Positions 3,738 to 63,554 of a DNA stretch of 64,000 nucleotides are shown one piece after another. Source of the DNA: Chiloscyllium plagiosum (lineage: Eukaryota); contig NC_057733.1 of NCBI RefSeq assembly GCF_004010195.1, forward strand, positions 30,449,938-30,513,937, written 5' to 3'. Both the position numbers and the translations under genes were made by a program. Numbering within the stretch: position 1 is the stretch's first letter; every line of letters starts with the position of its first letter. The notes under the pieces were generated by a model. That model saw nothing but the letters and a program-made list of their open reading frames with translations, was not told the origin of the DNA and searched no databases.

Positions 3738-3968
3738 TGAGATGGAAATGTGTTGCTGGAAAAGCGCAGCAGGTCAGGCAGCATCTAGGGAACAGGAGAA
3801 TCGACGTTTCGGGCATTAGCCCTTCTTCAGGAATCCCATTCCTGAAGAAGGGCTAATGCCCGAAACGTCGATTCTCCTGTTCCCTAGATGCTGCCTGACC
3901 TGCTGCGCTTTTCCAGCAACACATTTCCATCTCTGATCTCCAGCATCTGCAGACCTCACTTTCTCCTC
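3738..3968 (+). mobile_element. Penelope-like pLTR insertion forming a 96-bp perfect inverted repeat, with hammerhead cores
   Basis: Arms 3739-3834 and 3838-3933 with a CCC loop; flanking 15-bp direct repeat CTAAGGGATTTGAAC at 3723-3737 and 3969-3983. Confidence 0.85.
3842..3869 (+). ncRNA. Minimal type I hammerhead ribozyme motif
   Basis: CUGAAGA-A-GGGC(UAAU)GCCC-GAAA-C-GUC; activity not shown. Confidence 0.65.
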
Positions 3969-4629
3969 CTAAGGGATTTGAACCCCTACTTTTACTCCTG
4001 CTGCAGCCTGTTATTAACATCGGTATATTTCTGGAGTTGAATGGACCAGGTTTAATCCGCAATCTAGACATCTCGAGAATCCAAGCATGCATTATGAAGT
4101 TTCACTGAAGCAAGTCATCTTGGCATTAGTCAAAATAAAATCAATGAAAAGGAGGCAGATTGAGTTTTAAAATGTCTCATGTTAAGGGATTCTTCCTCCA
4201 GCAATAATTCATAAACTGCAAATCAAACAATTGTCTCTCCTTAAACTTATTTTATTGTTTCTTCCCAATCTTCTTCATGAAAGGAAAACTTGGTTCCATT
4301 GCAATACTTGACAAATTGGAAATAAGACACTTTTAAACTTAATTTGTATTTTGTACCCATACGCATAGCAGTTGTGCTCTGGGAAATATTTTCCAGATGC
4401 AACTGGGAATTGTCGATACTACAACATTGCAGACATCAACTCGTTTGAAATAAATACGTTATTCTACCACCAAGGAAATATAAAACCACACCAACCGTAA
4501 CCCAGCAATATAACTAACGACTGCTGTCACTGGGAATCTGATCCAGTTGGTTGCAAACCCCTACTGCAAGAAGTGTCCTAGGGTTGATACCACCATGGTA
4601 ATTCAGCAGAGCCTGGGATATGGAACACT

Positions 4630-7557: not shown

Positions 7558-7778
7558 ATGATTTGGAGGTGCCAATGTTGGACTGGGGTGTATAAATTTA
7601 AAAATTACACAACACCAAGTTATAGTCCAATAGATTTAATTGGAAGCGCTAGCTTTCAGAGCACTGCTCCTTCATCAGGGGTTTGTGCACAACGACCTGA
7701 TGAAGGAACAGAGCTCCTGAAAGCTAGTGCTTCGAAATAAACCTGTTGGATTATAACCTGGTGTTGTGTGATTTTTAA
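7558..7778. mobile_element. Second-family Penelope-like element forming an imperfect inverted repeat, with hammerhead cores
   Basis: Minus-strand core CUGAUGA-A-GGAGC(AGU)GCUCU-GAAA-GC-UA at 7650-7678, plus-strand copy at 7697-7726; homologous to 51416-51525. Confidence 0.75.
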
Positions 7779-8263
7779 AATTTTTAAATAAGATTTTCTT
7801 TTGTTAAATAAAAGCTGTGTACTTTTGTTTACACTCTGACACTGTTGGAATGGAGAAAGAAGAAGATTTACTCTATTAAATTTATGAAGGATGGATTTAT
7901 AGTAATGCTGTTGGATCAGATTGACAGCGTGTAAATATGGAGGAACTGGAGGGAACAAACTAGCAAAAAACCATATATCAAGCACTGAAATAAATTTGTG
8001 ATTTTGTCAGCTCTTAAATAACTATGTTTGTCCACGTGTGTCAAACAAATAACTGTTTTTATGCCAAGCGATCTTCCTGTATTTGTTTGCATTCTTTTAT
8101 CTTGTCAATAGGGACTCCTGTTAAACTAACCTTTCTGGCTACATTGATGATTCTGCATGAATAATGTATTCTAGTAAATAAATACAAGTGTGAATTTAAA
8201 GTCGTGCTGTAATTACCAATCCTCTGTGTATGAAAGTGACTCTTAAACTGCGAGTGAAAATGA

Positions 8264-14818: not shown

Positions 14819-15765
14819 TAAAATGAAGTCAAACATGGGAGGAAAATGGCTAAAAGTAATGGAGAAAATAGCTGGGAGGAGGGAGTGCAAGACAGAACCA
14901 CCTGGGGAATCCTGGGATCATTACTTAGTGTAGTTAATGTATTAGGTCTAGCTGGTGCTTGCTTGTAAGAAGAATTTGGAATAGAACATCAAAGAAGCTG
15001 GCAAAGAGAATTTAAAATGCTCACATCAGCTGACTGAAGGAGTTATGCAAATTCTGCGAATCAAGGAAAGGTGGAAACAAAATCTGCTCAAACAAGTGAG
15101 TTAGTTCCTGTGGGATGTGTATGTGGAATTATTCATATAGGTAATGTTTCACTCTTTGTTCAGATTGCTTTTAATCTACATGATTGTCTCACAGAAATAA
15201 TTTTGACTTCTGCAGCTGGTTAGAGTTTCCAGAAACCACATGTTAAAATGGGTTGGAGGATAGCATGCAAGCTGGAATCAGTCTGTGGCAAATATGTTGG
15301 CATGTAAATCTAAACACCATGCACAGGGTGGGTATTTGATGGAGGGCTGGTGAGCGATCCACGTTGCCTCTTTAAGGGAAAACCCATCATATTTCATATC
15401 ACTCAGGCACTTAACTGAACAGCAGTCACCGAGACCAGGGGGTCTTGAGGAGACGGGTGTCCTAGCAACTTGACTAGACAAAGTGCCAACTGGAGAAGTG
15501 GTGGCTGCTGCTGGTACAACACTTACCTCAGGCCTAGGGTCATCCCTAAATCCTCGGCAACAGGTGACTGATGGCAGGAAGACGGTGCTGGGGGAGTTGT
15601 TGATGGGGGCACGGTGGGGGTTTTAGTCTGAGTAGGCCACCCACTTTGTCATGCCATTCCCTTAATCAGATGCTGTGTCTTTAACATCCTCCCCCACCAT
15701 TGGAGTCTGCAAGCAACATCTCACTGGTTTGAACTCACCTGCCACTGGGTTAATATCAGTGGAGG

Positions 15766-16349
15766 ATGAGTGGTGCTGGAAGAGCACAGCAATTCAGGCA
15801 GCATCCGAGGATAGGCAAAATCGACGTTTCGGGCAAAAGCCCTTCATCAGGAATAAAGGCAGAGAGCCTGAAGCGCCGCTCCCTCACCACCAGACGCCTG
15901 GAGGAAGAACGCCTCATCTTCCGCCTCGAAACACTTCAACCCCAGGGCATCAATGTGGATTTCAACAGCTTCCTCATTTCCCCTTCCCCCACCTCATCCT
16001 AGTTTCTAACCTCCAGCAACACGATCCCCTTGACTTGTCTGGACTTGTCCGACCTGCCCAGCTCCTTTTCCACCTATCCACTCCACCCTCTCCTCCCTGA
16101 CCTATCACCTTCATCTCCTCCCCCACTGACCTATTGTACTCTATGCTACTCTATCCCCACCCCCACCCCCACCCTCCTCTAGCTTATCTCTCCACGCTTC
16201 AGGCTCTCTGCCTTTATTCCTGATGAAGGGCTTTTGCCCGAAACGTCGATTTTGCCTGTCCTCGGATGCTGCCTGAATTGCTGTGCTCTTCCAGCACCAC
16301 TCATCCAGAATCTGGTTTCCAGCATCTGCAGTCATTGTTTTTACCTCCC
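15766..16349 (+). mobile_element. Truncated Penelope-like element: inverted pLTR, GIY-YIG endonuclease C-terminus and 3' pLTR
   Basis: About 15875-15990 encodes RSLTTRRLEEERLIFRLETLQPQGINVDF (R..E..I..L.T..P.G.N motif); inverted arms 15766-15873 and 16195-16303; flanked by TAATATCAGTGGAGG. Confidence 0.85.
16220..16247 (+). ncRNA. Minimal type I hammerhead ribozyme motif
   Basis: CUGAUGA-A-GGGC(UUUU)GCCC-GAAA-C-GUC; activity not shown. Confidence 0.65.
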
Positions 16350-16364
16350 TAATATCAGTGGAGG

Positions 16365-16539
16365 TCAGGCAGTATCCGAGGAGCAGGAAAATCAACGTTT
16401 CGGGCAAAAGCCCTTCATCAGAAATTTGCCCGAAACATCGATTTTCCTGCTTCTCAGATGCTGCCTGACCTGCTGTGCTTTTCCAGCACCACTCTAATCT
16501 AGACTCTGATTTCCAGCATCTGCAGTCCTCACTTTTGCC
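16365..16539 (+). mobile_element. Second short Penelope-like pLTR insertion with an inverted 5' part
   Basis: Inverted arms about 16362-16407 and 16425-16471; bounded by TAATATCAGTGGAGG at 16350-16364 and 16540-16554. Confidence 0.8.
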
Positions 16540-16837
16540 TAATATCAGTGGAGGCAGAATGGGCATTAGTTGCTCATTCATGAATTCACAGCAGGATAGA
16601 AAAGTCTTCAATTGGCCTGCCAGCCATAGAAAGGATGGAGGCAGGAAGCCGACGTGATCTCCAATTGTCACCATCCCACCTGATTAAGTGGATTCCCATG
16701 AGTTACCACACTTACCGCTGAATTGATAATGAAGTCCTCCCAAACTTACCAATGGCAATAATTGACAAATACTAAGAAATAATTGCTTTGTTATTTGATA
16801 GTGCCGAACTTGATTATTACAGAAAAAGAAACATATT

Positions 16838-17270
16838 TTTGTCTCGAACTCATCAGGACATTTGCAAAAATACCAATGTAAAGTGGAACAACATTTTACA
16901 CTTAAGGGAAGAGAGTTGTTGACAGACTAGTTGGCCAGTGGACTCTTATTGGTAAAGGCATTGTCATGGAGAATATAATCAGTTGGATGATGACTGACAG
17001 TTAACTGCAAAAGCTTGGCCAATCAAAGTCAACCTACCTGGTTTATATTTAAACAAAGCTTGACATTTAATTGTCAGCCATAATGATACTGGTGCATTCT
17101 CCATGGCAATGCATTTAACAATCAAAATCCACTTGCCAACCAATAAGCACCCCCTACTCATACAGTGTAAAATGTTTGTACATGGGAAAAGTTGCCATAG
17201 GCTGACCAGAGTATAGGCCTGCTCTTTCATTAAAGAGTGGGACGGCAAGACTGAAAGTTTCAACAAAATA
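16838..17270. mobile_element. Degenerate palindromic non-autonomous element
   Basis: Internal imperfect inverted repeat 16940-16974 / 17096-17130; minus-strand CTGATGAG at the left end. Confidence 0.4.
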
Positions 17271-17822
17271 TTTTTATTCATCATCATTCAAATAATTATT
17301 TCTTAAAGTAATCGTAATATTAAATACGATACCATACTTATCAGTGTTCAATTTCTCTTTATGTAATGTCAAATACAAAATGGATTTTTAATATTTCGCT
17401 GAGAAAATTGAGTAAATTAGTTATGTAAAGCAATTATGTGCTCTGGTCAAATGTCCTTCCATTATGCTGAATCTTTTTAGGAGCACATTCACAAGCATAA
17501 TATAATAGAAAGTAGAAGAATTCTTATTCTGCCTTTTAAATAATTACTTTCTTACAGAGACCCTTAGAAAATATTTTATTCTGCCTCAGAACACACAATC
17601 AGAAAGTCTCAGTGGGGTTAATGAACTCTTCACCTTTTAAAATGTAGCACCAGGAAATACATTATAGGTTAACTTTTAAAGAGGAGAGATTTTAATGGCA
17701 CGGATACATAAATCTTTAAACACAAGTAGACATGTTTATAAAACAGTAAACTAAATAGAGACACAGGATACAAAAATAAAGTAATGGACAATCTATATGG
17801 TGGCTTCTCGGCCAAGTGTAGC

Positions 17823-18643
17823 TGTCTCTCAGCCCGGCATGTTTGTCTGTCTCTCAGCCTGGTCTGCAGGTCTGTCTCTCAGCCCGGTGTACCTGTCTCA
17901 GCCCGGTCTGCAGGTCTGTCTCTCAGCCCAGTGTGTCTGTCTCTCAGCCCGGCGTGTCTGTCGATCTGTCTCTCAGCCCAGCGTGTCTGTCGATCTGTCT
18001 CTCAGCCCGGTGTGTCTGTCTCTCAGCCTGGCGTGTCTGTCGATCTGTCTCTCAGCCCGGTGTGTCTATCTGTCTGTCTCTCAGCCCGGCGTGTCTATCT
18101 GTCTGTCTTTCAATCCGGTCTGTCTCTCTGTCTGTCAGCCCGGTCTGTCTGTCTGTCTCTCAGCCCGGCGTGTCTGTCTGTCTGTCTATCTCCCAGCCCG
18201 GTCTGTCTTTTTGTCTGTCAGCCTGGCGTGTCTGTCTGTCTGTCTATCTCCCAGCCCGGTCTGTCTGTCTGTCTATCTCCCAGCCCGGTCTGTCTGTCCG
18301 TCTCTCAGCCCGGTCTGTCTGTCTGTTTCTGATACCCGGTATGTCTGTCTATCTCTCACCCTGGTCTGTCAGTCTGTCTGTCCCTCAGTCCGTCTGTCTC
18401 TCAGCCCAGCACAACTGTCTGTCTCTGTCTCTCAACCCGGTCTGTCTCTCTGTCTCTCAGCCCGGTCTGTCTGTCTGTCTCTCAACCCGGTCTGTCTGTC
18501 TCTCAGCCCAGTCTGTCTCTCAGCCCGGTCTGTCTGTCTGTTTCTCAGCCAATCTCTCTGTCTCTCAGCTCGATCTGTCAGTCTATCTCTTAGCCCAGTG
18601 TGTCTGTCTGTCTCGCAGCCCGGTCTGTCTGTCTGTCTCTCAA
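17823..18643. repeat. Degenerate (TCTG)n / TCTCAGCCCGG minisatellite
   Basis: About 30 copies of (TGTC)n-TCTCAGCCCGG with variable spacing of about 20-40 bp. Confidence 0.95.
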
Positions 18644-18649
18644 CTTGGC

Positions 18650-19003
18650 GTGGCATTGTCTGGTGTGGCCTCAGCGTGACCTCTGGCCTAGAGGTGATTC
18701 CAGAGTGGCCTCATGGCCTTGAGAATCTTGAGGTGAATGTCGTTGCGGTCTGGAGTCAAGGCCAGGGTGGACTGGGTTCGAAAGTCTGGTATTCTGAACT
18801 TATTATTTTTTTATTTCTCCAGTTTATTCCTCAGATCTGTAATACTGGACTTTTTATTTATTAATTGTTCAAATTTTTTTGGTCAGAGTTTCTACTTAAG
18901 AATCTGTACATTTGAACGTAAAATGGTTCTGTATGGCGACACATAAACGTTTCACTATACTCATTTATTTGCATGTGACAATAAAGCTAATTCTAAATTC
19001 TAT
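18650..19003 (+). mobile_element. 3' part of a non-autonomous retroelement attached to the minisatellite
   Basis: Ends TTTCACTATAC...GTGACAATAAAG plus (AATTCTA)2 tail, typical of LINE/SINE 3' ends; interrupts degenerate CR1-like sequence. Confidence 0.5.
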
Positions 19004-27112: not shown

Positions 27113-28689
27113 GTGAGTATCAGTACAAAACTGGCAGTGTTCTAGATTTGGCAGATTTCATTTTATGGCCCATTATCATGTGCCCTGTGCAAAATACTTT
27201 CTAAGAATTTAATTTTCTTCAACGTATATTAAATAATAGACTTGCAGTGATAGATGTTTCGAGTCTGTTCTGTTGGCATTAAGATTAGAGTCTCATTTTC
27301 ACTTCAATCCTGGCTGTTTGGTGTAGTATTAGAACATAGTGTTGCCAATCAGGACAAGTGATGTGTTATATATCTGTGTTTGAGCTTTCGTGATTTGAGG
27401 ATGGTGTTATTTTCCTTTGTGCTGTTTCACCAGTGAGTAATTTGCAATAGATTACAGACAAATTCTGTAATTTGAATCAACTCAAGAATATCAACTCTGA
27501 AGATGTTCTGTTCTTGTCTGTATAAGCTATTTTACTTTGAAGTGCCAAAATATAATGGAAAATTTGACATATCTGTGAGGAAAGGTTTCCACAGTACTCT
27601 ATATGTGGTAAAATTGTAAGGCTATGTATCAAAAAAAGGCTTACAATTTTGCCACACTTAAAACAAAGAAATCTCAACTCTGGTCACTAACCTAGGCCTT
27701 ACTGTTAAATTCCCCATAATTTAGTGGCTATAATCACTCACTTTCCCTGTTGCTGTGGCCTTTGAGAACTCTGCAATCTTTGAGGGTAGACTTCCTAATT
27801 TAAAAAAATGTACAAGCAATAAATGTTGCTCCTAATTAAACAAAAAGACTGATGGGAGAAAATACTTCAAATGATGCTGTAACAAAGTCGAAGTGAGCCA
27901 CTACAACTTGGTTAATGTGAGATGTAGAGGGCAAATTTGCTTTTGAAAGATTATTTGTTTTATGCAGCGGAGATGTATAATTGGATCGCTTTTTAATTAA
28001 AGTTTTAATAGGAAAATTATTTGTCCTCGATTTATATTTGAAGTTCCTATTTTTCACCACAAATGTGGTTAATTATTTGCTTCCACTAAGTAACAGCTCC
28101 CCCCCCGCCCCCCGCCCCCGCTCCTGTATCTGACTTGAATTGTACTAAAATAGAAATGGTCCATTTTCAACCTTACCCTGCAGCATTTTGCTGTTTGTCT
28201 CGAGCAGGGATTATAGATATTAGCTTTTTTTTTTGTCCTCTGTTTGTTTATTTTACCAGAAATGCGAGTGCAAGTTATGAACCCGTTCTCTCACTTTGCT
28301 TAATTTCTGCGTTTATTGTCACCATTACAAAAATAAAGGAATATAAGCGCTCGTGTCTTTTTCTCAAAGGTTCTATCAGATATCTGGATGCATGATTACA
28401 AATTTGTATTTCCGAATTAACTTAATTGCTTTATAACTCAGTTAATGGAGAGATTCAACTTGTAATAAATGAAATACTTATAATAGATATGACCTAACCT
28501 TCCAGCTTTAAATTAAACTATTCCCAGTTATCCTCACCCAGTCATTTCAGTGTGACTAGAATCAGTAAAATGGTAATCTAGCAGCTTGAATATTACCGTT
28601 AGAGCATCAGCTCTATCAAACCTTGCTATTGAGGAGCAAGAAATTTGCTTTCACTCTGAGGGCTTATAGTTGTTGCACAGACTGAGTAA

Positions 28690-32326: not shown

Positions 32327-32366
32327 AGTTGTTTACCAGGATGGGTTTTATGGGGCAGAAATTTAC
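32327..32366 (+). CDS. RBFOX3: RBFOX3-like 40-nt exon (B40 equivalent: VVYQDGFYGAEIY)
   Basis: ttttttgcag| acceptor and |gtgagt donor; exactly 40 nt; phase 2-0. Confidence 0.96.
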
Positions 32367-33963
32367 GTGAGTATTGATTTTAAAATCAAATCGTTTACAA
32401 CTGGTGAGTTGAAAGCACACATGCCTAACTTTTGTCTGCATTCGGAAGGTGTACAATTATTACAGAAACAATATCTACTTCACCTGCAGAAATTGATTGA
32501 ACTTATTGAAATTCCTTTGGATATGTACATTGGTGCTAAACCATTCAAAACTTCATACATCAATACATCTAAAAGAAATGCTCAATGCCCCCTTGAAGAG
32601 GCAGGTCTTTGATCATTATTAGAGCAGAACAGTAGTTCTTAATTAGAGACAGGTTTAGCAGTTCTGATTATTAAAATGATACAGTTGCTCTTATGTCAAA
32701 TTGGTTTGGCATGAATCTAATTAAATTAGAGCACTTATAATCCAGCAGGAACAAATATAAAAACCAAATGATATCTACCAGTTACCAAGAGAAGGGTGAA
32801 TCATTTTGAACAAATTTAGCTCATTACATAATTTTAAGAACATTTGCTACATTTGAAAATTAAAATCGAACTGCATAATTTCTCAAACTGTTAAGTTAAA
32901 GGACAAGGATTTAGAACAAGCTACAAGTTGAAGCTTAAGTCAACACTTCTTTTGTAATCAGAAATTGCCGTTTTAAATTTACTAATGAAAGAATTTCAGT
33001 GAAGTCACTGTTTAATATCAGCCTGTTCCAAAAGGGGCACAGATCAGAGACCACAATGAACGAGTCTCATTATACAGCAAATCCACTTACGCATATAAAT
33101 AGCATTACTCGGTAGCTTGGCAATACATTGAATCGTATAATACCACAAATTACTTCAAAACTTTACCAAATAGAGTAGATAATATCTCTGTACCTTCCTT
33201 CAAGGTTGATACTGAATGAATGAGCCTCAAGTACAAGATCACAGTTGATTGTTACCAGCATAAAGGGTTTACTCAACCACTAAATTGAGTATAACTACAG
33301 TGCTTTTCCTCCAGAACACTTAGACTCTGTATCTTGCAGTAGTGAGATAATGATCCAATAGTCCTGCTGCTGTGGTTAGAGTGGGGAATAAATCTGATGA
33401 TAGATTAAATTTCAAGCTACACACACGAAGGGATATTAAGTAGGCCTGAGCAGCTGGATCTCAGTTGTTGTGATTGTTATCTCACTGGTTTTCGGTTTGC
33501 CTTGAAGTTATCCATAATAGTCTACATTCTATGTTGGGGCTGTCAGCAATCCTGCTGTTAAAGAGTACTGGATCTCATGGTATTTTTGGATAAGGTTTTG
33601 CACAGACTTTATACTGCACTATATTTTCTTCAAATTTAAGATGGAGTGTTCCCAAATCATAAGCTGTGATCCACCATGAGGTCACAAGGCAAGCAACTGA
33701 GGCTGTGAGCTCCCAGTCCTTACTGATCACACAGGTGGAACAGCCATGGGATTAGCCCCTTGGTGTGTGTGTATGTGAATTATTTTCTTGCCTTGGTCTT
33801 GTGAGTGTGGTCTAATGAGCCTCCTCCAAGGCTGTGTTATTTCTTCCAATAGAACATAATGGTAGATGGAAAAAAAAGCAAGCAACCAACTGCAGCAACA
33901 ACCCCCCCCCCCCCCCCCCTCCCCAGCTCTCACAACTCTACTTCCATTTGCTCTCACTGTCCT

Positions 33964-34147
33964 CCCTGGTAGACAAACAGAAGGCTGGAAGTCAGGCAGC
34001 ATCTCAGGAGGTGGAGAAGTCTGATGTTCCGAGAAGGGTTAGACCAGAAACATTGACTTCTCCACCTCCTGATGTTTCCTGGCTTGCTGTGCTCTTCCAG
34101 CCTTCTGTTTGTCTCCTTTTGGATTCCAGCATCTGCATTTTTTTTGT
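33964..34147 (+). mobile_element. Third-family Penelope-like pLTR with an inverted 5' arm
   Basis: GACAAACAGAAGGCTGGAAG / CTTCCAGCCTTCTGTTTGTC inverted arms; flanking CTCTC(A/G)CTGTCCT at 33951-33963 and 34148-34160; decayed hammerhead core. Confidence 0.7.
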
Positions 34148-34555
34148 CTCTCGCTGTCCTTCCTCACAGCTTTACTCCTCACTGTCGGAACCCTCACTGT
34201 TTTTCTTTATGTTTTACCATTTTTAGTTTTGAGCTGTGAACTGACAGCTGAAGGTGACCTTTGAGCTGTGATCAGCGCTTGTGTTTCTTTTTAAAAAAAA
34301 GACAAACTGATAGTCGCGTATGACTCTCCAACTCTTACCATGCCCCTAAAATACAACATCCCCTGCCCTACCCTCCTCTGGGAGCTCTATTCTCCTGTCC
34401 CTTTGGAATCTCTGCAGAATGAGCCACAGTAGTTGGGGGGGGGGGGGGAAGTTGAGTAGCACTGATTTAAGACAAACAGTTTAAGTTCTGAGTTGGACAT
34501 CGACAATGTCAATGTTTCTAGCAGGAATAGATGAATTGCCTGAAAAATGTTGAGG

Positions 34556-36280
34556 AAGTGAGGACTGCAGATGCTGGAGATCAGAGCTGAAAATGTGTTG
34601 CTGGAAAAGCGCAGCAGGTCAGGCAGCATCCAAGGAGCAGGAGAATCGACGTTTCGGGCATGAGCCCTTCTTCAGGAATGAGGAAAGTGTGTCCAGCAGG
34701 CTAAGATAAAAGGTAGGGAGGAGGGACTTGGGGGAGGGGCATTGGAAAGGCATCGTTGCAAGAGGATTCGCAGTAGGTTAAAGGGTTATAGAGAGTGGGC
34801 AGGAAAGTGGAGTTGAGACCGAGATGAGATCAACCCTGATCATATTAAATGTCACAGCAGGCTCAAGGGGCTGAATGGCTTACATCTGCTCCGAGCTTTT
34901 ACGTTCCTATGTTCTCCAGCTCCTGTTTCGTATGTTTTTATTCTTACAAACAGTGGGAGCATAATATAGCGACTTCCATGCCAGGAGTATACATCTGGTA
35001 TAGGAACTTGTGGGCAGAGATTGCTACATGTTTAACACTCGCAAAACAGGCACAGTGAGTTCTCCCAAAGAATGAGATATTTCAATGATTTCAAATTTGG
35101 CAGCATAAGAAAAAGTCACTTATTAATTTAAGCCATTTGCGAAAAAAGCTTGAATGTTGTAACGTTGGTCCTTTTGACTTTGGCTCCCTACCAAGCCAGG
35201 GGGGAGAGGAAAGTACTCTTGATTGACACTGATGCCACATTGTACTTCCATGGTCATTTCAACGGTGCAGTCAAAGCTGAACATATGAACTAAAAGCACT
35301 AATTGAACATATTATTACAACATGGACCCAATTCCATTCTGGGAAGCGTGCTTTTGTTGACCTGTTAGTGAAATAGCACAATATCCAAGGGCAAAGGATT
35401 AAGAACAGAATGAGACCATTCGGCCCTCTGAGACTGCTAAGCTGTTCTTTAAGATCAAGGATAATCAGGGTGTCGGCTCAACTTCACTTTCCTGTCTGGC
35501 TCCCTCCTAACACCCAATTGTCGCGAGCTCAGCCTTGAACAAATTCAATGACACACCCCCGCGGCTTTTTGGTGAAGAGAATTCCATTGATTAATAAAGG
35601 GTATTCATATTCTTAAAGAGTGTCCCTGAGCTTTACAAAAGGTATATCTTCCCAGTGCCCGCCCTCTCGAGCCCTCTCTGGATCTCATGTGTTTCAATAG
35701 CATGAGCTCTCATTTTTCTAAACTCCACTGGTGCAGGTCTAACCTCTGCAACCTTTCCCCATTCAATAACTCCCTCATCCTCAATGAACTGTTCTGAATG
35801 AAATGGTATCTTTTTTCCAAATAAGGAAACCAATACTGCAGACAGCTGAAATAACTGCACGGAGGCCGGTATCCCATTATTAAGTCACCCTTTATTCACG
35901 TGTGCACAGTACATGGGCTCTGACCACCCCTAGAATGAGGAGACTCTCTGACACTCCTGTTTATATCTGTGAGCCAGGGCTCCCTGATTAGCCCAGGTTA
36001 ACAACCCCTCTCAAGGATCTTACAGACAATGGGATGCAATCTTCTTCCTGACCTCTCCGCTCCCACCCCCACTCTGGCCTATCACCCTCACCTTAACCTC
36101 CTTCCACCTATTGCATTTCCAACGCCCCTCCCCCAAGTCCCTCCTCCCTACCTTTTATCTTAGCCTGCTTTGCACACTTTCCTAATTTCTGAAGAAGGGC
36201 TCATACCCGAAATGTCGATTCTCCTGCTCCTTGGATGCTGCCTGACCTGCTGCGCTTTTCCAGCAACACATTTTCAGCTG
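34556..36280 (-). mobile_element. Composite Penelope-like insertion: inverted pLTR arms enclosing about 1.3 kb of other DNA
   Basis: Arms 34556-34748 (-) and about 36040-36279 (+); 15-bp direct repeat TGAAAAATGTTGAGG at 34541-34555 and 36281-36295. Confidence 0.8.
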
Positions 36281-39014
36281 TGAAAAATGTTGAGGTCTGT
36301 ATTTGAATCTGGAGTGATGCTGATTAATGTGCCTAGTTGATCCGCCAAGTTCAGGTTTTGTTAGATTTCCCTGTTTCTGTAATTCCTGGAATGCATGGCT
36401 GAAGCAAATAAAGGAAAGTCATTTGCCGGTAAGGAAGACAGCCCTGTCCTTAAATTTAAAAGGATGAAAAATCCAGAGAAACCTTTCTCTTCGAAATAAA
36501 TACTCCCCATTTGGTTAACTTCAATTTTCTGTGCCTGATGCAATATGCTCAGGTGTAGGATCAGCAAACTCTGCCTGATGCCTTTTTGAAAGTAGTATTA
36601 AAAGGTTGATCATTGTTGTGCTCTGTGCCTCTTTATGCCCTTTTTCGCAGATTTCCAGAAACCTTCGCCATCCTATTTGACTGGGGAAGACTTTGAAAAT
36701 GTCTACCAGAAATTGATGATCCATCTTTTATAGCAGAATTGCAATTATTTTTCACAAAGCTTTTAATTAACTGGTTATTAAATCTTTTTTTCCTTCATTC
36801 TTCATGGTTTGTTTGATTGCCTCATTGTTATTCATTATCCATGACCAGAGCACCAAACTGTATGAGCAAAACCGTCTTATTGGACAAAAAATGTAACAGA
36901 TAGCTTTCAGAATCCAGCTACAGTGAGAGTAGCTGTTGCTGATTGAGCATTTATTTCCACAGTAGATGTTGCGCTCTTTTATCACTGTTTCCTTACATTT
37001 TACTGCCACAGGCAGGCAAATTCTACATATTTTCTTGGGTGCATGAATTCTGAGGTATTAAGTGATTTGTGACCATTGAATCTGTATGATTAAGACACTG
37101 TTCTTACAAATTTGTTTTGTAAAATGTGATTAGTTTAAGAATCATTTGCAAACAGTGCTCATTGTTGCTTAATAATTGAAATGGAGTGACTGGAAATAGC
37201 AGGTGCAACAAACTTCAGCTGAGACCATGGCTTACGGGCTGATTATATCATGTAGCCTACACAAAAATGACTAAAACAGCATATTTAAATAAATATCGTG
37301 CAAGTGCATAATGAAAAACATTTTATGTTTCTGGTCCATTTGACAAACTACTGTCTTCCATTGCATCCAATATTAGTACTGTAATGGTTTTCATGGAAAC
37401 AAGTAGCCTCAGGCTGCACTGCAGTGTGACATCCCAAAGGGATCTCATTCAGACAGAGACTGTCTCTTGCAAGCTCATGCAGCAAGTTGAGTTCCTTCGT
37501 TACCGTCAGTACTAAAGAGATCCTCACATTCCCATGCTATAAAAAGTATTCTCTAAAACATTAGCTGTAAATTAAACAAGAACTGAAATTTGTGGTTGAA
37601 ACAGAATACATAATGAAAAGGTTTAGGATCAAATGAGTAAACCTTCCTGAATATCACAACCAAGAGGCATGTGGAAATAGGGCAAAAAGTGGATAAGTAA
37701 TGCAAAATAGTGAGGACACTCTGTTGCTAAATGACTATATTTCTAAATTTCCTCACTGATTTATGCCAGGTATTTGTGCACGTCCTGATTGCATATGTCT
37801 CTGGGTGAAAATACTCAGCTGCTTGCCTCATTACAGTGGATGCAGCCTTAATTTAATTTCCTGTAATTATACTGTTTTAGAAAGGATTTAAAATTCTTAG
37901 AATTTTTGGTACAGCAGGAAACAAAGGCTTACTTCTGATACTTTTCTGCAATTTTTAAATTTATCCTCACTGAGATCTGCTGTGGTATTTTGTTTTTCTG
38001 AATGCATTTTGTGGCATTCAGTTTGTGTGACATTAAAAGTTGGAAAGCTTCCTCGATTGCAAGTTCTTAAACAAGCTGTGCCTAATGTCTGTGACTAATG
38101 ATTAAATGGCTTCAAACTCGAATTTTTATTCCTAAAGAAATATGGTCTGAGTTCTGTGCTTCCCTCAGGTCCCAATTCTTTACACTGATTTAAGCCCAAT
38201 TTTACAAACCAGCACATGCTAAAAAGATTGGCATGAAATGTATGCACATCCATGATGGGTCAAATGGCCTGCATCCCTGCTGTGTCATACATTGATTTGC
38301 ATAAATGTGACATTATTTTAAAGAGTGTGTAAGCAAGTGTGATTTCAGGTGAAATTTCATGATTGAAATCCCAAGGGGAAATTTCCCTCAAAATTTCTGA
38401 CATTCCTAAGTTTAACAGTGTCATGTTGAATATGACATGCATGGAGCAATAAATGAATTGATTGGAAATTATTGATTCAGTTTTATTCATTGATCTTTAG
38501 CTAGATTCTCACTGAACAACAGGATTTTGGTGTGTGTAAGTAGTTTGAGATTTTTACTTTACTCTGGTACAGAACCTCATCTGCTATATGCCCTGTAGAT
38601 GCATCTGGAAGCTAGACTTGAAAATGTACCTACTTTGCCAAGGTCAAGTTATTCTCGAATTTCCAGTGAATCTTGTGAGAATACACCAACTATAAAGTCG
38701 GTGTAAATCAGTATGAACAGTAAGGAGTCAAGAAAAGCATTAAAACTATTGAATGAAAAATAAAGCTTCAACTCATTTATGCACTCTCGGCACATGTTTA
38801 ATTACCTGCAATTGAGAAAGCTTTGGGATTTTTAATGCCACTTGCATTTGTGCCATAAAATGCAAGCAACAGACAATAAAGACAATCTCAGTGATGACCA
38901 ACTTAAGGAAAGACTCAATTGCAACATGCATTAAAAAAGCATATTTCTTGCTTCACCCAAAAATCTGCTCGCAATTTGAAGAAAAGCTTTGAGCAAACAC
39001 TGCAGGAAATTGTT

Positions 39015-39346
39015 GGGCGGCACGGTGGCACAGTGGTTAGTACTGCTGCCTCACAGCGCTAGAGACCCGGGTTCAATTCCCGACTCAGGCGACTGACTGT
39101 GTGGAGTTTGCACGTTCTCCCCGTGTCTGCATGGGTTTCCTCCGGGTGCTCCGGTTTCCTCCCACAGTCCAAAGATGTGCAGGTCAGGTGAATTGGCCAT
39201 GCTAAATTGTCCGTAGTGCTAGGTAAGGGGTAAATGTAGGGGTATGGGTGGGTTGCGCTTCGGCGGGTCGGTGTGGACTTGTTGGGCCGAAGGGCCTGTT
39301 TCCACACTGTAAGTAATTTAATTTAATTTAATTTAATCTAATCTAA
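39015..39346 (+). mobile_element. Full-length HE1-like V-SINE
   Basis: GGGCGGCACGGTGGCACAGTGG head, B box GGTTCAATTCC, V-domain, LINE-derived tail with (AATCT/AATTT)n. Confidence 0.92.
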
Positions 39347-40936
39347 ATTCATGTGGGAGGCTTTGTAATTTCAACGCATGATCAGTTTTAAAAGTCTAAA
39401 TTTTTTGAATGGGGAAATTGATCATAAAAGATTGAAGAAGTGTATCCAAGCACTTTATTTACTCATGTGACCTTAGCAACCATCTTACTGATTTGCACTG
39501 CAAATAAAAGGGAAGTTCAAAGTTTTTGTACTTTTATTTTGCAAACTACATTTCCCCACCCTCCACAGTGAAAGTTTGATGTGTATTTTGGCCACTTATT
39601 TGGAGAGCTTGCACACCACTGTATGATACTAACTTGTTCTCAAGCCCAGTCTGCTCTAGATTGTGTTTTTTTGGGGGGGTTAAAAAGGATCAACTGTAAT
39701 TTATCTGAATGGCAGAGCTAGCCCATGATGCTGACTGGTCTATTTTGCTCCCCAATGATTCTAGGCTAGAGAAATCAGCTGTAACTATGCAAGAACACAT
39801 TATTGTAAATTGGATTTAATGGCAAAGGAATGATTAAAACATCAATGTCGTTTTAATCAGAATGGCCATTTAAAAATGGTACTGCCTATGGAGAACCAGA
39901 TGACATAAAACTGTTGCCTGACCGCTGTGAACCGGATTAGTACATCCCAGGGTGTAGTCCCCTTGGTACCTACCAAGTGTACAGAGCAAATTAAGTTTTA
40001 ATATATTTCATCCAATTCCTATATAAGGGATTCCACAGCAACATGTTACCTCCAGCTGAGAGACATTAATTGACATTGTAGCAAATAAAAACTCAACTTT
40101 ATTTTGGACAGGTTGTAATTAAAATATCATGATGGAGAGGGCAGCAGCTATGTGTGTTTTGTAACGGGATCTGAACCCAGTTCATCAGTGTACAAAATGA
40201 AAATTGTCACAGATTTATAGGCTGCAGTAGATTGTGAAGAAACACCCATTAACCTTCGGGAGGAGGGCCGCTGTTTAGGAATCGTTTAAGATCCTTGTGA
40301 AAGGTTTATGAGAGATTTATTTGAAGAGCTGTATAATTGAAGCTATCTACAGGATGATTTCTCTTACCTTTTAATTTAATTTCTAGGTTAATATTTTTAA
40401 AAAATCCCATCTGAATGTTAATGAGCCTAAAACTCCCATAAGGGGGAGGGAGGGGATGACTTTATTAGATAGGCAGCCCTCTGTGGACCCAACAATACCC
40501 AGTTCCATTCATTCAATTGCTGTTTAAAATGTGAATGAGATGGCATGATGCCAAGGACCCAGGCTGCAGTCCCTGTGTTTTAATTAACACTGCGCTTAGC
40601 ACAGTATATGAGGGGTTTAACAGTATTGAGGTTTCAGATCGATCAGTCACTGCCATGCTCACTGCATCTTCTATCGAAATCTCTGCAGTGTCTGATTCCC
40701 ATTCTGAACACACTGCTGAGACACTAAACACTTCACCAGCCCCCACCTGCTTCGCCAAAGCTTCAGCATTGCAGCCCATGCAGGGCTGTTCATCCATTAG
40801 CGCTTATCAGTTCTGCTCCCTAGCATCTGGATGTTACTATTTTCTTAATACAAAACAATGAGAAGTCACTTCTTTTATTAGGAAAACCTGCCAGCCATCA
40901 CTCCAATCCCAAATTCAAATCCCTCCTCATGAATTT

Positions 40937-41275
40937 CACGGGTAGCTCAGTGGTTAGCACTGCTGTCTCACAGCAATTGGGACCTGGATTTGATTCCAGT
41001 TTTGGGTGACTGTGTGGAGTCTGCATGTTCACCTTGTGTTTGTGTGGTTGCTCCAGTTTCATCCCCCAGCCCAAATATGTGCAAGTTAGGTGGAATGGCC
41101 ATGCTAAATTGTCTGTAATGTCCAGCGATGTGTCGGCTTGGTGCGTTAGCCATGGTCAAGGTAGGGTTACAGGATAGGGTAGGGAGCTGGATCTGGGTGG
41201 GACGCTCTTCAAAAGAATAGTGCAAATTTGATGGGCTGAATGGCATCTTGCTGCACTGCTAGGATCCTATAATTC
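40937..41275 (+). mobile_element. Older HE1/V-SINE subfamily copy
   Basis: Diverged match to the 39015 copy. Confidence 0.8.
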
Positions 41276-42582
41276 TAGTTTCAGGAGCCCACTGATAAAT
41301 CATAAGAATTTATTTTCAACAAATATATCAGTTACAGGTTTGAATGGTTATTGTTAAAGCACAGAATGTTCAAGTCATGAAACACTATGAGATGAATCTG
41401 AACCCAGCTAACACTTCATCCTTGTTGTTGAAATTGAGCATGTTACTCCCTTGGTTCTTCTCACTGTTTCTGGCAAGGCTGGGTAATTTGTTTTTAATGT
41501 CATCAGTGATATTCTGTTACAGACTCTGACCAGAATTGGGAGGACAGATGCTGTGGCTTCTCTACCATTTTAAAGCTGACAGCAGCAGGATTTGTAACGC
41601 TGCCACAAAACATTTAAATTGTTTTCTTTAGACTGGTGTTAGCAATTAGTGTATTGGAGAGGGCAAGATGGATAGTTCCAGGGCATGTCAATACTCCAGT
41701 GTGGCTCTAAAAAAAATCCATGTGTTATTTAATGATAGCTTAGTTGGAGCAGCACTACCAAATTCATAACATTTTTTTTAAAGAGTTAGTAAAACATTGG
41801 AAAACTTGACTTCCACTTCTGAACTACACATTGAACAAGCACTAACAACATATTCTGAGGAGCAGATATAGGGCACACTTCTATAAGGATTCAGAAGCTA
41901 ATATTTCTTCCAACAAACCCTAAGTCTTCCCAGAAAAATATATAGTTATTAGAAAAGTCCCATGTAGTTAACAACAGAAAGTATCCTTTGGCACTAGATT
42001 TCTAATTCTGTGTTTATACTTTTTAATCTTTAAGAGCATACATAAGTCACGAGGGAAAGTGAGTGGGTTTAGTGTGTTACAGACAAAGATTAACTTTGTT
42101 TGCTTTCTAAAGTGCCTGTTGTTTTCACGGATACTCTGTCACCTGAGAAAGGAGATAGTCAATTATCAAAAGCAGCAGTTCATATTGGGATGCAACTGTA
42201 CAGGTCTCTCGGTCTTCGCCAGAACTTATATACCAGCAATGTATTTTGCACCAACTTAAAAGAATTCTTTTCATGAGGAATTTTTCCTGGGCAAATGCTT
42301 AGTAGCAATAATGACCTAACAAATTGATGTTCACAAGAGTACAGTAAGTAGCACAATCTCAACAGGTCAGCAATTCTTTCCATCCAAATTAATTGCGCCT
42401 CAGATCTAGATGGCGCCAATCAGCCCTGCTCGTGGTTTGCCTGCATCTCTGGGTTGTGACTGTTTGCAGAGCCTCTACTTCCCTGACCATTTCATTGCCT
42501 CCATCTTACAGACTAAGCATCATTTGCCACAGTATTAATCTATTCAACACAGTCTATAATCAAGCTCTTCTTTCTATTCCAG

Positions 42583-42650
42583 GGAGGCTATGCAGCATAC
42601 AGATATGCCCAGCCTGCTGCAGCTGCTGCCGCCGCAGCATACAGTGACAG
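42583..42650 (+). CDS. RBFOX3: RBFOX3-like exon, 68 nt (GGYAAYRYAQPAAAAAAAAYSD-S)
   Basis: ttctattccag| acceptor and |gtatga donor; GGYAAYRYAQP family signature; phase 0-2. Confidence 0.96.
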
Positions 42651-51809: not shown

Positions 51810-53576
51810 GTCCATATTACAAGGAGAAATGCTGGATGTCTTGAAATGCATAGAAGTGGATAAATCCCCAGGACCTGATCAGGTGTACCCTAGAACTCTG
51901 TGGGAAGCTAGGGAAATGATTGCTAGGCCTCTTGCTGAGATATTTGCATCATTGATAGTCACAGATGAGGTGTCGGAAGAATGGACATTGGCTAATGTGG
52001 TGCCACTATTTAAGAAAGGTGGTAAGGACAAGCCAGGGAACCATAGACAAGTGAGTTTGACGTTGGTGGTGGGCAGGTTGTTGGAACAAAACCTGAGGGG
52101 CAGGATGGACATGTATTTGGAAAGGCAAGGACTGATTAGGGATAGTCAACATGGCTTTGTGCGTGGGAAATCATGTCTCACAAACTCGATTGAGTTTTTT
52201 GAAGAAGTAACAAAGAGGATTGATGAGGGCAGAGCGGTAGATGTGATCTGTATGGACTTCACTAAGGCGTTCGACAAGGTTCCCCATGGGAGACTAGTGA
52301 GCAAGGTTAAATCTCATGGAATACAGGGAGAACTGGCCATTTGGATACAGAACTGGCTCAAAGGTAGAAGACAGAGGGTGATGATCGAGGGTTGTTTTTC
52401 AGACTGGAGGCCTGTGACCAGTGGAGTGCCACAAGGATCAGTGTCTTGTTCCACTACCTTTCCTCATTTATATAAATGATTTGGATGTGAGCATAACAGG
52501 TATACTTAGTAAGTTTGCAGATGATATGAACATTGGAGGTGTAGTTGACAGTGAAGAAGGTTACCTCAGATTACAATGGGATCTTGACCAGATGGGCCAA
52601 TGGGCTGAGGAGTGGCAGATGAAGTTTAATTTAGATAAATGCGAGGTACTGCATTTTGAGAAAGCAAATCTGAGCAGGACTTATACACTTAATTCCTGAT
52701 GCTCATTCCTGATGAAGGGCTCTTGCCCGAAACGTTGATTTTCATGCTCCTCAGATGCTGCCTGACCTGCTGTGCTTTTCCAGCACCACTCTAATCTTGA
52801 CTCTGATCTCCAGTATCTGCAGTCCTCACTTTCGCCTTATACACTTAATGGTAAGGTCCTAGGGAGTGTTGCTGAACAAAGAGACATTGGAGTGCAGGTT
52901 CATAGCTTCTTGAAAATAGAGTCGCAGGTAGATAGGATAGTGAAGAAGGCGTTTGGTATGCTTTCCTTTCTTGGTCGGAGTCTTGAGTACAGGAGTTGGG
53001 AGGTCATGTTGCAGCTGTACAGGACATTGGTTAGGCCACTTTTGGAATATTGCATGCAATTCTGGACTCCTTCCTATCGGAAGGATGTTGTGAAACTTGA
53101 AAGGGTTCAGAAAAGATTTACAAGGATGTTGCCAGGGTTGGAGGATTTGTGCTTTAGGGAGGGATTGAATAGGCTAAGGCTGTTTTGCCTGGAGCGTCGG
53201 AGGCTGAGGGGTAGCCTTTTCGAGGTTTTTAAAATCATGAGGAGCATGGATAGGATAAATAGGCAAAGTCTTTTCCCTGGGATGGGGAAGTCCAGAACTA
53301 GAGGGTCTGGGTTTAGGTTGAGAGGAGAAAGATATAAAAGAGATCTAAGGGGCAACTTTTTCACGCAGAGGGTGCTCCTTGTATGGAATGAGCTGCCAGC
53401 GGAAGTGGTGGAGGCTGGTACAATTGCAACATTTAAAAGGCATTTGGATGTTTATATGAATAGGAAGGGTTTGGAGGGATATGGGCCAGGTCCTGGCAAG
53501 TGGGACTAGATTGAGTTGGGATATCTGGTCGGCATGACAGAGTCTGTTTCCGTGCTGTACATCTCTATGACTCTAT
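51810..53576 (+). mobile_element. 5'-truncated CR1/HER1-type LINE (RT pseudogene, frameshifted)
   Basis: KSPGPD, QHGF..GKSCLTN, DFTKAFDKVPH, GVPQGSV and KFADD motifs; frameshifts near 52445; CTCTATGA tail. Confidence 0.95.
52694..52835 (+). mobile_element. Penelope-like pLTR inserted in the CR1, with hammerhead core at 52709-52736
   Basis: TSD CTTATACACTTAAT at 52680-52693 and 52836-52849; CUGAUGA-A-GGGC(UCUU)GCCC-GAAA-C-GUU. Confidence 0.88.
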
Positions 53577-56485: not shown

Positions 56486-57619
56486 TTAATAATATGCATT
56501 AACATGGAATAATCAGTCGTACAAATCACAATTTGATACTGGGATAAGCTGGATTCCTACATGGCTGATATTGGCTCTATATTTGATTTGAAATACCAGC
56601 ATCAGCCTGGGTGCTGCAGTACAGCAAGTGAGCCGAGCACAGAACCAGGCTGAATGGCCTCTTTTTGCACTGAGGGATTCTGTGATTCCAACTGTTTCAA
56701 ATTGTTCAAATCTTCTTGGCATTTACTGTTATACACTCATAGACATTTACAGCTCAGAGGGACGCTATTCAGCAAGTATGCCTGTGCCAGTCAACCAAGA
56801 TCTGACTACACTAATCTCATTTTCCACCCTTTGACCCATAGCCCTACATGCTATGGAAATGCAAGCAAATATTGAAATACCGCTTAAATATTTCATGAGT
56901 TTCTGATACAAACACACTTTCAGGCTGGGAATTCCATATTCTCACCACCCTTTGAGTAAGAAAATAATTTTCCCGATGTGTCATTTTGGACTCCTACTAC
57001 TGGCCATATATCTATGTCTCCTGGCTATTGACCACTCTATGAATGGTAAAAGTATCTTCTTACCAGCTTAACTAAGCCCCTCACAATATCATATACCTCT
57101 ACTCCTGCCCCTTTCAACCTTTGCTTCTCCAGAAAATAGCAACCTCAGCTTCCTCAATAATTCCTCAAAGATCTATCTGCCATAGCTTCTCTTTTATTTT
57201 TCTTAGTCCTTAATCTTTACATCCCTTTTCATCCAGGGTTCTTTAGTCTTGAATGCCTCCGACTGCTTGAACACTGTTTTATCTTCTAGTAGCTACTCCC
57301 AGTCAAGTTGTGCCAAACCATATTTTAGGAAAATTACCTTTTCCACAGTGTTGAAGTTTAATTCCCAGCACATCCTTATCATTTTCCAGAACAAACCTAA
57401 ATCGAACTGCATTATGCTTACTATCACCAGAATGCTCTCCTATTATTATGTCTTCCACTTGGGCTCATTTCCAAATGTTAGAATTGCCTCTTCACTTGTT
57501 GAGCATTCCATTGACTGGCTAAAAGGGTCTCCTAGATGCAATACATACCCTGTACTGGTTCACGATAGCCGCTCACCACCATCTTCTCAAGGGCAAGTGG
57601 GGATGGGTAACTACTCACA

Positions 57620-58167
57620 GAGCACTTAAGAGAACATCTCTGGGACACCTTCACCAATCAACCCCACCGCCCCGTGAACTAAACACTTCAACTCCCCCTC
57701 CCCCTCCGCCAAGGACATGCAGGTTCTGGGCCTCCTTCATCGCCACTCCCTTACCACCTGATGCCTGGAGGAAAAACGCATCATCTTCTGCCTCAGGACC
57801 CTCCAACTCCATGGCATTAATGTGGATTTCACCAGTTTCCTCATTTCCCCTCCCCCTACCTTATCCCAGTTCCAACCTTCCAGCTCAGCACCACTTTCAT
57901 GACCTGTCTCACCTGTCAATCTTCCTTCCCACCTATCCACTCCACCCTCCCCTCCAACCTATCACCTTTGTCCCCATCTCCATCCACCTATTGCATTCTC
58001 AGCTATTCCCCCACCCCACCCCCGAGGCTCCCAGCCTCATTCCTAATGATAGGTTTTTGCCTGAAACGTCGATTTTCCTGCTCTTCAGATGCTGCCTGAC
58101 CTGCTATGCTTTTCCAGCACCACACTCTTGACTCTCACCTCCAGCATCTGCAGTCCTCACTTTTGCC
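57620..58167 (+). mobile_element. Truncated Penelope-like element (GIY-YIG remnant plus pLTR)
   Basis: Decayed EHL...HFNSPS..KDMQVLGLLH...LEEKRIIF.LRTLQ.HGINVDF, followed by a pLTR with a mutated hammerhead core. Confidence 0.82.
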
Positions 58168-58833: not shown

Positions 58834-61111
58834 TTTTTTTTATTTCAAAAATATACTTTATTCATAAAATAATTTGATGGTCTGTACAGTTGGTCATGCC
58901 ATACATACGTAACATTTATATACAGAGATCAGAATTTATCATTTTTATATACAGGTCTGTACGTTTATCAATCATATGTCCATATATTTAGCTGAGGCGC
59001 CAGCAGAGCCCAAATGACTGCATGGGCCCCCTGTTCTTCTTTGGCAGGCAGATGTTACATGGTGGTCTTGTAGTCCTGGGCCTTGGAATGTGCCAGTCTG
59101 CAACACTCAGTCGGGGTCAACTCCTTCAGCTGGAAGATCAACAGGTTTCGGACCGCCCAGAGAGCGTCCTTCACCGAGTTGTTGATCCTCCAGGCACAGT
59201 TGATGTTCGTCTCGGTGTGCGTCCCGGGGGACAGGCCGTAGAGCACGGAGTCCCGTGTCACGGCGCTGCTCGGGACGAACCTCGACAAACACCACTGCAT
59301 TCCTCTCCAGACTTCTTCTGCGTAGGCACATTCCAGAAGGAGGTGTGTGACAGTCTCGTTCCCCCCCCGCAGCCACTTAGAGGGCAGCATGCGGTGCGGC
59401 TGAGAGTCCAGGCGTGCATTAAGGATCTCACAGGCAGAGCCCTTCTCACCACCAGCCAAGCAATGTCTCGGTGCTTGTTGGAAAGTTCTGGCGATGAGGC
59501 ATTCTGCCAAATGGCTTTGACAGTCTGCTCAGGGAACCGCTCGATAGGATCCGCCCTCTCCTTTTCCCGAAGGGTCTCAAGGACACTACATGCTGACCAC
59601 TTCCTGATGGACTTGTGGTCAAAGTTGTTTTTCTTCATAAACTTCTCCACGAAGGACAGGTGATACAGAATGGTCCAACTACTCGGAGCGTTCCACGGCA
59701 GCGAGGCCAGGCCCATCCCTCGCAACACTGGGGACAGGTAGAACCTCAGTACGTAGTGACACTTGGTGTTTGTGTACCGGGGATCTACGCACAGCTTAAT
59801 GCAGCCTCACACAAAGGTGGCATTGGGTGTATTTTTTTCCCCCGTTGCCCAGATCTTTGTACAGCAAGTCCCTTCAGACCCGGTCCATCTTTGACCTCCA
59901 TATAAATTGGAAGATGGCCCGGATGACTGCAGCGACATAGGTTCTGGGAATAGGCCAGACCTGTGCCACATATAACAGCAATGACAGTGCCTCACTCCTG
60001 ATGACCAGGTTTTTTCCCGTGACCGTAGCTTCCATCTGCCCAGTTTCTGCCTCACTATGCTGATACGCTCCTCCCAAGACTTGGCGCACGCCCCAGCCCC
60101 CCCCTCCCCAAACCAAATACCCAGCACCTTCAGGTGGTCGGTCCTGACGGTGAAGGGGATCGAGGATTGGTCGGCCCTTGGTTTACCTTGGCCCCCGAGG
60201 CCCATTCGAACTAGTCACATATGCACAAGAGTCTGTGCACGGACAGCGGATCCGAGCAGAAAACGGCGACATCATCCATGTACAGGGAGGCCTTAACCTG
60301 CAGGCCCCCACTGCCAGGAATAGTCACCCCCCTCAGGCTCGCATCCTTCCTGATGGACTCGGCAAATGGCTCTTTGTAGCACACAAACAAGGCAGGAGAG
60401 AGAGAGAGAGCAGCCCTGCCTGACTCCAGATCTGACTGGGAAGCTATCTGATTCCACCCATTGATTGAGACTGCACTGACAATGTTGGTGTAGAGCAGTC
60501 TGATCCAACTGCCGATTCCCTCCCCAAAGCCCATTTTGGAGAGAACATCTCTCATATACCTGTGTGATATCCTGTCAAAGGCTTTCTCCTGGTCCAGGCT
60601 GATCAGGCAGGTGTCCAACCCTCTGTCCTGCATGTAGGCGATCATATCCCTGAGGAGTGCGAGACTCTCAGCGATCTTCCTGCCCGGCACAGCACAGGTT
60701 TGGTCAGGGTGAATCACCGACCCCAGAGCAGACCTGATCCGGTTGGCGATTACCTTTGACAGAACTTTGTAGTCCGCATTCAACAGTGAGATTGGTCTCC
60801 AATTTTTGAGTTCCTCCCTCTCCCCCTTCCACTTGTAGATGAGGGTGATAATGGCTTTCCTCATGGATTCACACATGGTACCTGCCCGAAGCATACTGAC
60901 ATACACCTCCAGCAGGTCCTGGCCAATCAAGTCCCACAGAGCAGAATAGAGCTCGACCAGTAGGCCGTCACTTCCAGGAGTTCTATTCTTTTCGAAGGAC
61001 TCGAAAAGAGTCAGCTTGTCCAGAGATAGCGGCTGGTCCAGCCTCTCCCCTGTTCTGTCTTCTAAAACCTCCGTGATAGAAGACAGGAACGACTGGGAGG
61101 CCGCACTGTCA
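58834..61111 (-). mobile_element. Tx1-clade (L1-like) LINE, 5'-truncated, RT pseudogene
   Basis: TPGSDGL, NWRPISLLNADYK, DQEKAFDRISH, YMDD and C-terminal C-x-C...ET..HLLLEC; AATAAA plus poly(A) end at about 58834-58865. Confidence 0.93.
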
Positions 61112-63470: not shown

Positions 63471-63554
63471 CTGGGAGGCCGCGCTGTCATAGATGACAAA
63501 AATATTATTTTTATATCCCATTTCTGCCTCTGATCTGTGTGCTTTTCTCCGGGG

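Follow-up and report, generated by a model that had tools for sequence, protein, structure and literature searches.

Penelope-like elements (PLEs) that encode an endonuclease (EN+) leave insertions with inverted, 5'-truncated arms, a one-sided tail, a hammerhead motif and a target-site duplication (TSD) (Craig et al. 2021, PMC8557442, in part; Frangieh et al. 2024, PMC11167929). A PLE protein from a lizard, assayed in vitro, cleaves and extends the two strands and initiates reverse transcription (RT) at two RNA sites bounding the tail, and the sealing of such insertions is still unvalidated (PMC11167929). Two arms whose outer ends differ can on this basis be explained by one event. For Adineta vaga, the available part of Arkhipova et al. 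(2013, PMC3846280) reports a few non-coding cases of non-element DNA between solo pseudo-long terminal repeats (pLTRs) with TSDs, together with 0.9-1.5 kb host spacers in Pen1, and this rotifer capture case is restated in PMC6431247 (in part). Non-canonical L1 insertions containing templated or captured genomic DNA (PMC11702581, in part) and L1-RNA chimeras formed by template switching or twin priming (PMC13174262, in part) have also been described. Here, a 64,000-nucleotide stretch of the Chiloscyllium plagiosum genome (NC_057733.1, positions 30,449,938 to 30,513,937, forward strand; hereafter the window) was analysed, in which the unit at 34541-36295 is very probably a single fold-back of PLE type whose centre is occupied by foreign host DNA: an exact 15-bp repeat encloses two inverted arms and 1.28 kb of older host DNA.

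The unit resembles canonical EN+ PLE insertions in its inverted 5'-truncated arms, one-sided tail, hammerhead motif and TSD (PMC8557442, in part; PMC11167929), a structure further matched in the available parts of PMC3846280 and PMC4209133, but differs from them in lacking an open reading frame (ORF) and in carrying 1.28 kb of foreign DNA where the arms join, a position for which PMC8557442 (in part) and PMC11167929 describe no cargo. As in Adineta vaga, non-element DNA lies between pLTRs inside one TSD. However, the nonribosomal peptide synthetase case in that rotifer comprises two direct pLTRs plus a single inverted one and has an empty allele (PMC3846280, in part), whereas here there are two inverted truncated arms and neither an empty site nor a donor was seen. 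The likeness to the L1 cases (PMC11702581 and PMC13174262, both in part) lies in extra sequence joined during insertion resolution, inside the TSD; the element class is different, and the present unit has the element 3' end at both ends, no poly(A) and no known donor. Two synchronous insertions that exchange ends give mismatched duplications (10.1101/2024.08.27.596794, in part), unlike the exact duplication found here. A literature search, with most subscription papers outside its reach, found no account of cargo in shark PLE fold-backs.

Structure of the fold-back

The components are listed below by window position, with the strand in brackets; the runs mentioned are the public runs compared in the next section.

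34541-34555 (plus): left TSD, 15 bp, the last 4 nt also matching the element end; loose ends at 34552 in four of four runs
34556-34584 (minus): one-sided 29-nt tail of the left arm, at the putative outer RT start site (arm comparison; PMC11167929)
34585-34748 (minus): left pLTR arm, 5'-truncated, with an intact minimal hammerhead motif at 34651-34675 (arm comparison)
34749-34799 (plus): junction zone and start of the cargo, alike in gapped blocks to the continuation of the element (score 27)
34771-34915 (plus): cargo, decayed 3' end of a presumably CR1-like repeat, left edge approximate (68-72% alike to three of nine window paralogs; nhmmer E 2e-8)
34916-35389 (no strand): cargo, unique DNA with neutral-looking divergence (one contig per run; no window match below E 0.5)
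35390-35844 (minus): cargo, decayed 3' part of a presumably CR1-like repeat (66-71% alike to the best paralogs; nhmmer E 2e-8)
35845-36024 (no strand): cargo, high-copy insert taken to be long terminal repeat (LTR)-like, in which a direct repeat of 4-6 bp was found (GACA / CAGACA; summed depth 10,018-26,286 in the bin 35812-35945)
36025-36034 (no strand): final 10 nt of cargo, with no clear microhomology at the right junction
36035-36280 (plus): right pLTR arm, 246 nt, no tail, with a hammerhead motif at 36189-36213 that has two changes and is sense in the host pre-mRNA (loose ends at 36035)
36281-36295 (plus): right TSD, the first 3 nt also matching the element
32327-32366 (plus): context, exon of 40 nt from an RBFOX-family gene, lying 2.2 kb upstream (Pfam Fox-1_C); the next exon is at 42583-42650

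The direct repeat TGAAAAATGTTGAGG is identical at 15 of 15 positions between its two copies, and this 15-mer is found nowhere else in the window (with 25 boundary placements allowed for, chance about 5e-8); both copies stand at the outer ends, with no copy at the inner arm/cargo junctions. Four of eight repeat-end loci tested elsewhere in the window have TSDs of 14-17 bp, all four belonging to the arms' own repeat family, and a duplication of 15 bp is thus typical in length. Aligned as inverted copies, 34581-34752 and 36112-36283 differ at 10 of 172 positions, two of them at the edges, leaving 8 mismatches in 164 nt (34585-34748). Both the perfect bracketing repeat and the well-matched arms with some 165 bp of overlap had been described in the original prediction, and both hold. 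The PLE label is given on the insertion structure, as no RT or GIY-YIG ORF is tied to the arms.

The start of the right arm, set by family-copy loose ends, lies about 80 nt further inward than the left arm reaches. The tail is present on the left arm only and measures 29 nt (33 nt including the TSD overlap), slightly under the published range of 30-40 bp. The left arm is 94% alike to a copy at 3837-3965, and the end of the right arm falls within 1 nt of the inner arm end of the cargo-less fold-back at 3739. That fold-back (3723-3983), which is of the same subfamily and has a 15-bp TSD, constitutes a natural control. A composite DNA transposon, in which two separate inverted copies were excised together, was rejected: as in cargo-less fold-backs, the inner RT start is where the right arm stops.

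The arms show no difference over their outer 66 nt, the eight mismatches being confined to the inner 98 nt (post hoc p 0.02-0.05), and one arm is possibly a mosaic, judging by this alignment. Four of the five differences that could be polarised lie in the right arm (p 0.375, not significant). The hammerhead pattern, drawn from these arms, is matched exactly in the left arm and with two changes in the right, and gave eight matches in the window versus none in 100 shuffles. No hammerhead was among the 10 weak matches of an Rfam scan, the motif folded alone did not adopt the hammerhead fold, and a metagenome scan for the arm motif gave no matches. The right arm's private changes, four in number, are grouped in a 30-nt stretch (36184-36213) around the sense-strand hammerhead. 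Selection against a sense-strand ribozyme was considered and rejected, as intact sense-strand motifs occur elsewhere in the window at 3842, 16220 and 52709 and such motifs were inactive alone (PMC4209133, in part; PMC11167929).

Cargo, junctions and occurrence in related organisms

The cargo (approximately 34749-36034) sits exactly where the arms meet and contains no element sequence. Its plus-strand repeat 3' end (about 34771-34915), some 470 bp of unique DNA, minus-strand repeat (about 35390-35845) and high-copy piece (about 35845-36024) form a mosaic arranged as had been predicted; the names CR1 for the first and third and LTR for the last are our assumption. The CR1-like pieces are 66-72% alike to their best window paralogs, with scores of 90-132 versus shuffle maxima of 39-72 and three of nine paralogs clear for each piece, whereas the left arm is 94% alike to the copy at 3837-3965, and the cargo repeats therefore look older than the arms. 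From this decay it had been argued that the cargo did not enter the element later, which stands in so far as later jumping of CR1-like repeats into the element is ruled out, while a late repair patch of old DNA is still allowed. The LTR-like piece sits inside the minus-strand repeat and is the sole cargo piece with a direct repeat; no cargo piece is TSD-flanked inside PLE sequence. Searches by tblastn with the window's own long interspersed nuclear element (LINE) ORFs matched some of the paralogs and not the cargo pieces, and the assumption of a CR1 coding remnant at the start of the cargo was dropped, as the paralogs did not confirm it.

The cargo has 19 stop-to-stop frames of at least 40 amino acids, the longest of 83, and neither a strong splice acceptor motif nor a sign of RNA processing was found in it. 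Its divergence equals that of the left flank (Fisher p 0.83 for organism C and 0.25 for organism B, introduced below). A coding or exon cargo was rejected on these grounds, and the cargo looks neutral.

At the left junction, the first 50 nt of the cargo align in gapped blocks to the element sequence expected past the left arm, with a score of 27 that was reached by one of 400 dinucleotide shuffles and by none of 1456 random 60-mers; the best scores for four paralog stretches were 15-20. No comparable similarity to the element was found at the right junction. The left-junction resemblance fits an element-derived 3' end annealing to a loosely similar repeat, either at insertion or at a later break, hinting at homology-guided capture.

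Four of 22 listed public runs were compared at 88% likeness, namely X4 (organism A, from a sample other than the best-matching one), X10 (organism B) and X12 and X13 (organism C, one sample), with 84%, the whole, 86% and 87% of the run contigs examined, respectively. Such contigs show presence and not absence, they drop variants, the filter removes some records, and depth is not equivalent to copy number; a contig was regarded as bridging when it reached 31 letters into an arm. On the left side, contigs of X10, X12 and X13 lead out of the flank, across the TSD and into the tail (26, 25 and 24 letters); on the right side, contigs of X12 and X4 lead out of the arm into the flank (20 and 23 letters). 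Neither A's left junction nor B's right junction was among the contigs listed. Because outer junctions occur in B and C and no empty site is listed, the insertion probably predates the divergence of the three organisms. The arms differ by 4.9% (confidence interval 2.1-9.4), compatible with an A-C divergence of 4.1-4.3%; the value for the left flank is 4.3%. No ortholog without the arms was seen, and the related organisms appear to have them.

Over the unique cargo positions, the total depth equals that of one contig in each run (13.4 in X4; 14, 35.7 and 29.6 in the others), and the cargo contigs differ from the window at 4 of 1078 positions in A, 47 of 1132 in B, and 45 of 1102 and 44 of 1099 in C. 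The cargo is not the many-copy component of a composite PLE family, as its unique part is one contig of flank-like depth in all four runs. Three flank contigs of X4 have depths of 7.9-9.9 and the cargo contig one of 13.4, which weakly suggests a further, nearly identical cargo copy in A, although the X10 flank contigs scatter from 10 to 24. Searches of the cargo against the rest of the window by blastn and nhmmer gave repeat paralogs only (nine nhmmer matches), the unique part having no nhmmer match below E 0.5, and no donor was seen among the public contigs of the four runs at 88% likeness. In a simulation of the contig-matching rule, which was approximated, a donor up to 6% diverged was missed in none of 4000 trials. 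The donor locus and the empty site that the original prediction had anticipated have so far not been borne out.

Possible origin of the enclosed host DNA

The probabilities of the readings below are given in words and are our judgement, not computed values. The reading that we favour, tentatively and as falling a little short of probable, is that host DNA was captured while the PLE insertion was being sealed, its donor since lost or unseen. In one PLE event, the element endonuclease would have cut both strands 15 nt apart and each cut end would have primed one cDNA, from the outer start site to give the left arm with its tail and from the inner site to give the right arm. Before the cDNA ends were joined, the left end may have annealed to an old CR1-like repeat at another locus, the two being imperfectly alike over about 50 nt, and 1.28 kb of that donor locus (DNA or unspliced RNA) would have been copied and then end-joined to the right arm. 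The product would be a dead, fixed, single-copy fossil predating the split of the three organisms, with a donor that was lost or escaped view. In favour of this scheme are the exact TSD around the whole unit, the right-arm end shared with the cargo-less fold-back, the two-strand activity and two RT start sites of the lizard protein, the place of the cargo where the arms meet, the left-junction resemblance, the outer junctions in B and C, the agreement of arm divergence with that between A and C, and the rotifer precedent. The anatomy with its TSD, tail and hammerhead motifs, the junction resemblance and the single contig in each run are observed; the enzymology, timing, template and donor loss are what we infer.

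Several points weigh against such a capture. A donor of an old copy is expected to be some 4-6% diverged and hence detectable, yet one contig was found in each of the four runs, so that donor loss must be assumed; this is a strong hint against a simple copy model, not proof. The joins of the cargo to either arm are known from the assembly and absent among the contigs listed, and the single cargo copy of B and C could therefore be the donor itself. The outer-junction contigs reach only 20-26 letters into the arms, under the 31-letter bar, and an empty site with a single TSD copy was not among the joints and pieces listed for the four runs, a listing that leaves out 1709 joints. The left-junction resemblance was noticed first and tested afterwards. 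Finally, no RT or GIY-YIG ORF was tied to the arms: ORF remnants upstream of related arms (15862-15999 and 57500-57899), which we take to resemble the PLE endonuclease end, were not confirmed by any of five Pfam scans or two homolog searches and had no Atlas match.

Donor loss is not required if an old, shared fold-back received its cargo at the centre as a repair patch, recently and in lineage A, with the B and C contigs representing the donor and a near-identical A donor merged with the patch. We consider this rather unlikely. It fits the one contig per run, the ordinary A-C divergence of the cargo (45 of 1102), the missing cargo-arm contigs and the X4 depth excess over the flanks; both the resemblance at the junction and the lesser length of the left arm agree with the invasion of a similar repeat by a broken end. 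However, an asymmetric hairpin that had already diverged would have to break at its centre, a position that is the natural open junction during insertion, and the depth is weak evidence given the scatter of the X10 flank contigs.

One copy in three organisms would be accounted for directly if the two cDNA ends had trapped a piece excised from the same chromosome and the deletion, being linked, had passed on together with it, so that there was never more than one copy left. L1 insertion junctions can capture DNA fragments (PMC11702581, in part), and the cargo is free of signs of RNA processing. Two further breaks and tight linkage would nevertheless be needed, and no cut-out scar, with the 5' parts of both repeats abutting, was present among the window tblastn and nhmmer matches, a search of low power; we regard this course of events as unlikely. 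If true, it would make PLE fold-backs cut-and-paste relocators of kilobase pieces, marked by orphan cargo and a matching deletion on the same chromosome.

It had also been predicted that the host DNA arrived by PLE-mediated transduction or template switching, of which one PLE-type insertion with older host cargo is upheld, while transduction by RNA has no positive evidence. A read-through RNA from a source copy, comprising cargo, truncated element and tail, would have templated both arms; as an orientation, cargo (plus)-right arm-tail is consistent in itself, DNA lying between pLTRs can be mobilised by them in trans (PMC3846280, in part), and the four private changes of the right arm would be as in an older source, although that 4:1 asymmetry is not significant. 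The opposite orientation fails, since the right arm holds about 80 nt of element absent from such an RNA, the source locus was not seen and the left-junction resemblance is left unexplained, making this route very unlikely.

A chimeric assembly, in which the outer halves of a fold-back were joined to another locus with cargo between two inverted element copies, would agree with the lack of listed contigs spanning an arm or a cargo-arm junction, with the identity of the arms over their outer part only and with the presence of a 741-N gap in the window. It needs two mis-joins across repeats of only 200-250 nt and a second locus of the same shape, and we give it little credence. It is extremely improbable that the cargo is native intron DNA flanked by two independent insertions, or that its repeats jumped in singly. 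Native DNA would be expected as one copy diverged like the flanks, as is seen, but the exact 15-bp repeat stands at the outer ends only, the tail is on one arm only, and 470 bp of unique DNA and repeats at 66-72% likeness are not fresh transpositions.

Host intron and other features of the window

The element lies within a 10.2-kb intron (32367-42582) of the plus-strand RBFOX-family gene. Pfam Fox-1_C was matched in three of four exon pieces scanned (E 2e-19, 3e-4 and 4e-8), the 40-nt exon piece scoring 21.6 bits against a cut-off of 25 bits, which it does not reach. A brain-type alternative exon, B40, is present in mammalian Fox-1 and Fox-2 (PMC2777236, in part), and the 40-nt exon may be its counterpart. 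Pairing of the arms in the pre-mRNA is predicted to involve 162 pairs, with a duplex energy of -336 kcal/mol, and would loop the cargo out according to this model; several other fold-backs are present in the window. Divergence from C is lower in the right flank at 36339-37400 (29 of 1157) than in the left one (46 of 1073; p 0.025), and the right flank, with TGCATG at 36392 and 37040, is a possible conserved autoregulatory stretch. A further TGCATG lies at 28389, in a non-coding-looking stretch (28090-28400) between two RBFOX exons.

At 15751-16554, one 15-mer occurs three times around two tandem fold-backs (repeat-hairpin-repeat-hairpin-repeat), suggesting that the same target was struck twice or that a single event proceeded in several steps. 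A PLE-type end with a 14-bp TSD was found at 52680-52849, inside a LINE ORF remnant. Decayed palindromic repeats of other families are located at 33971-34114, 7594-7782 and 16890-17176, two or three copies of a LINE-like ORF region, 89-92% alike, at 58834-63475 beside the 741-N gap (62346-63086), and a degenerate CT-rich tandem repeat of about 0.9 kb at 17800-18680.

The capture of host DNA between pLTRs is of a known kind, and what deserves attention here is how long the cargo is and that no donor was seen. Taken as one dead insertion, the unit is of little consequence; as a data point, it would indicate that the junction of PLE cDNA ends can take up more than 1 kb of host DNA, possibly guided by loose similarity.

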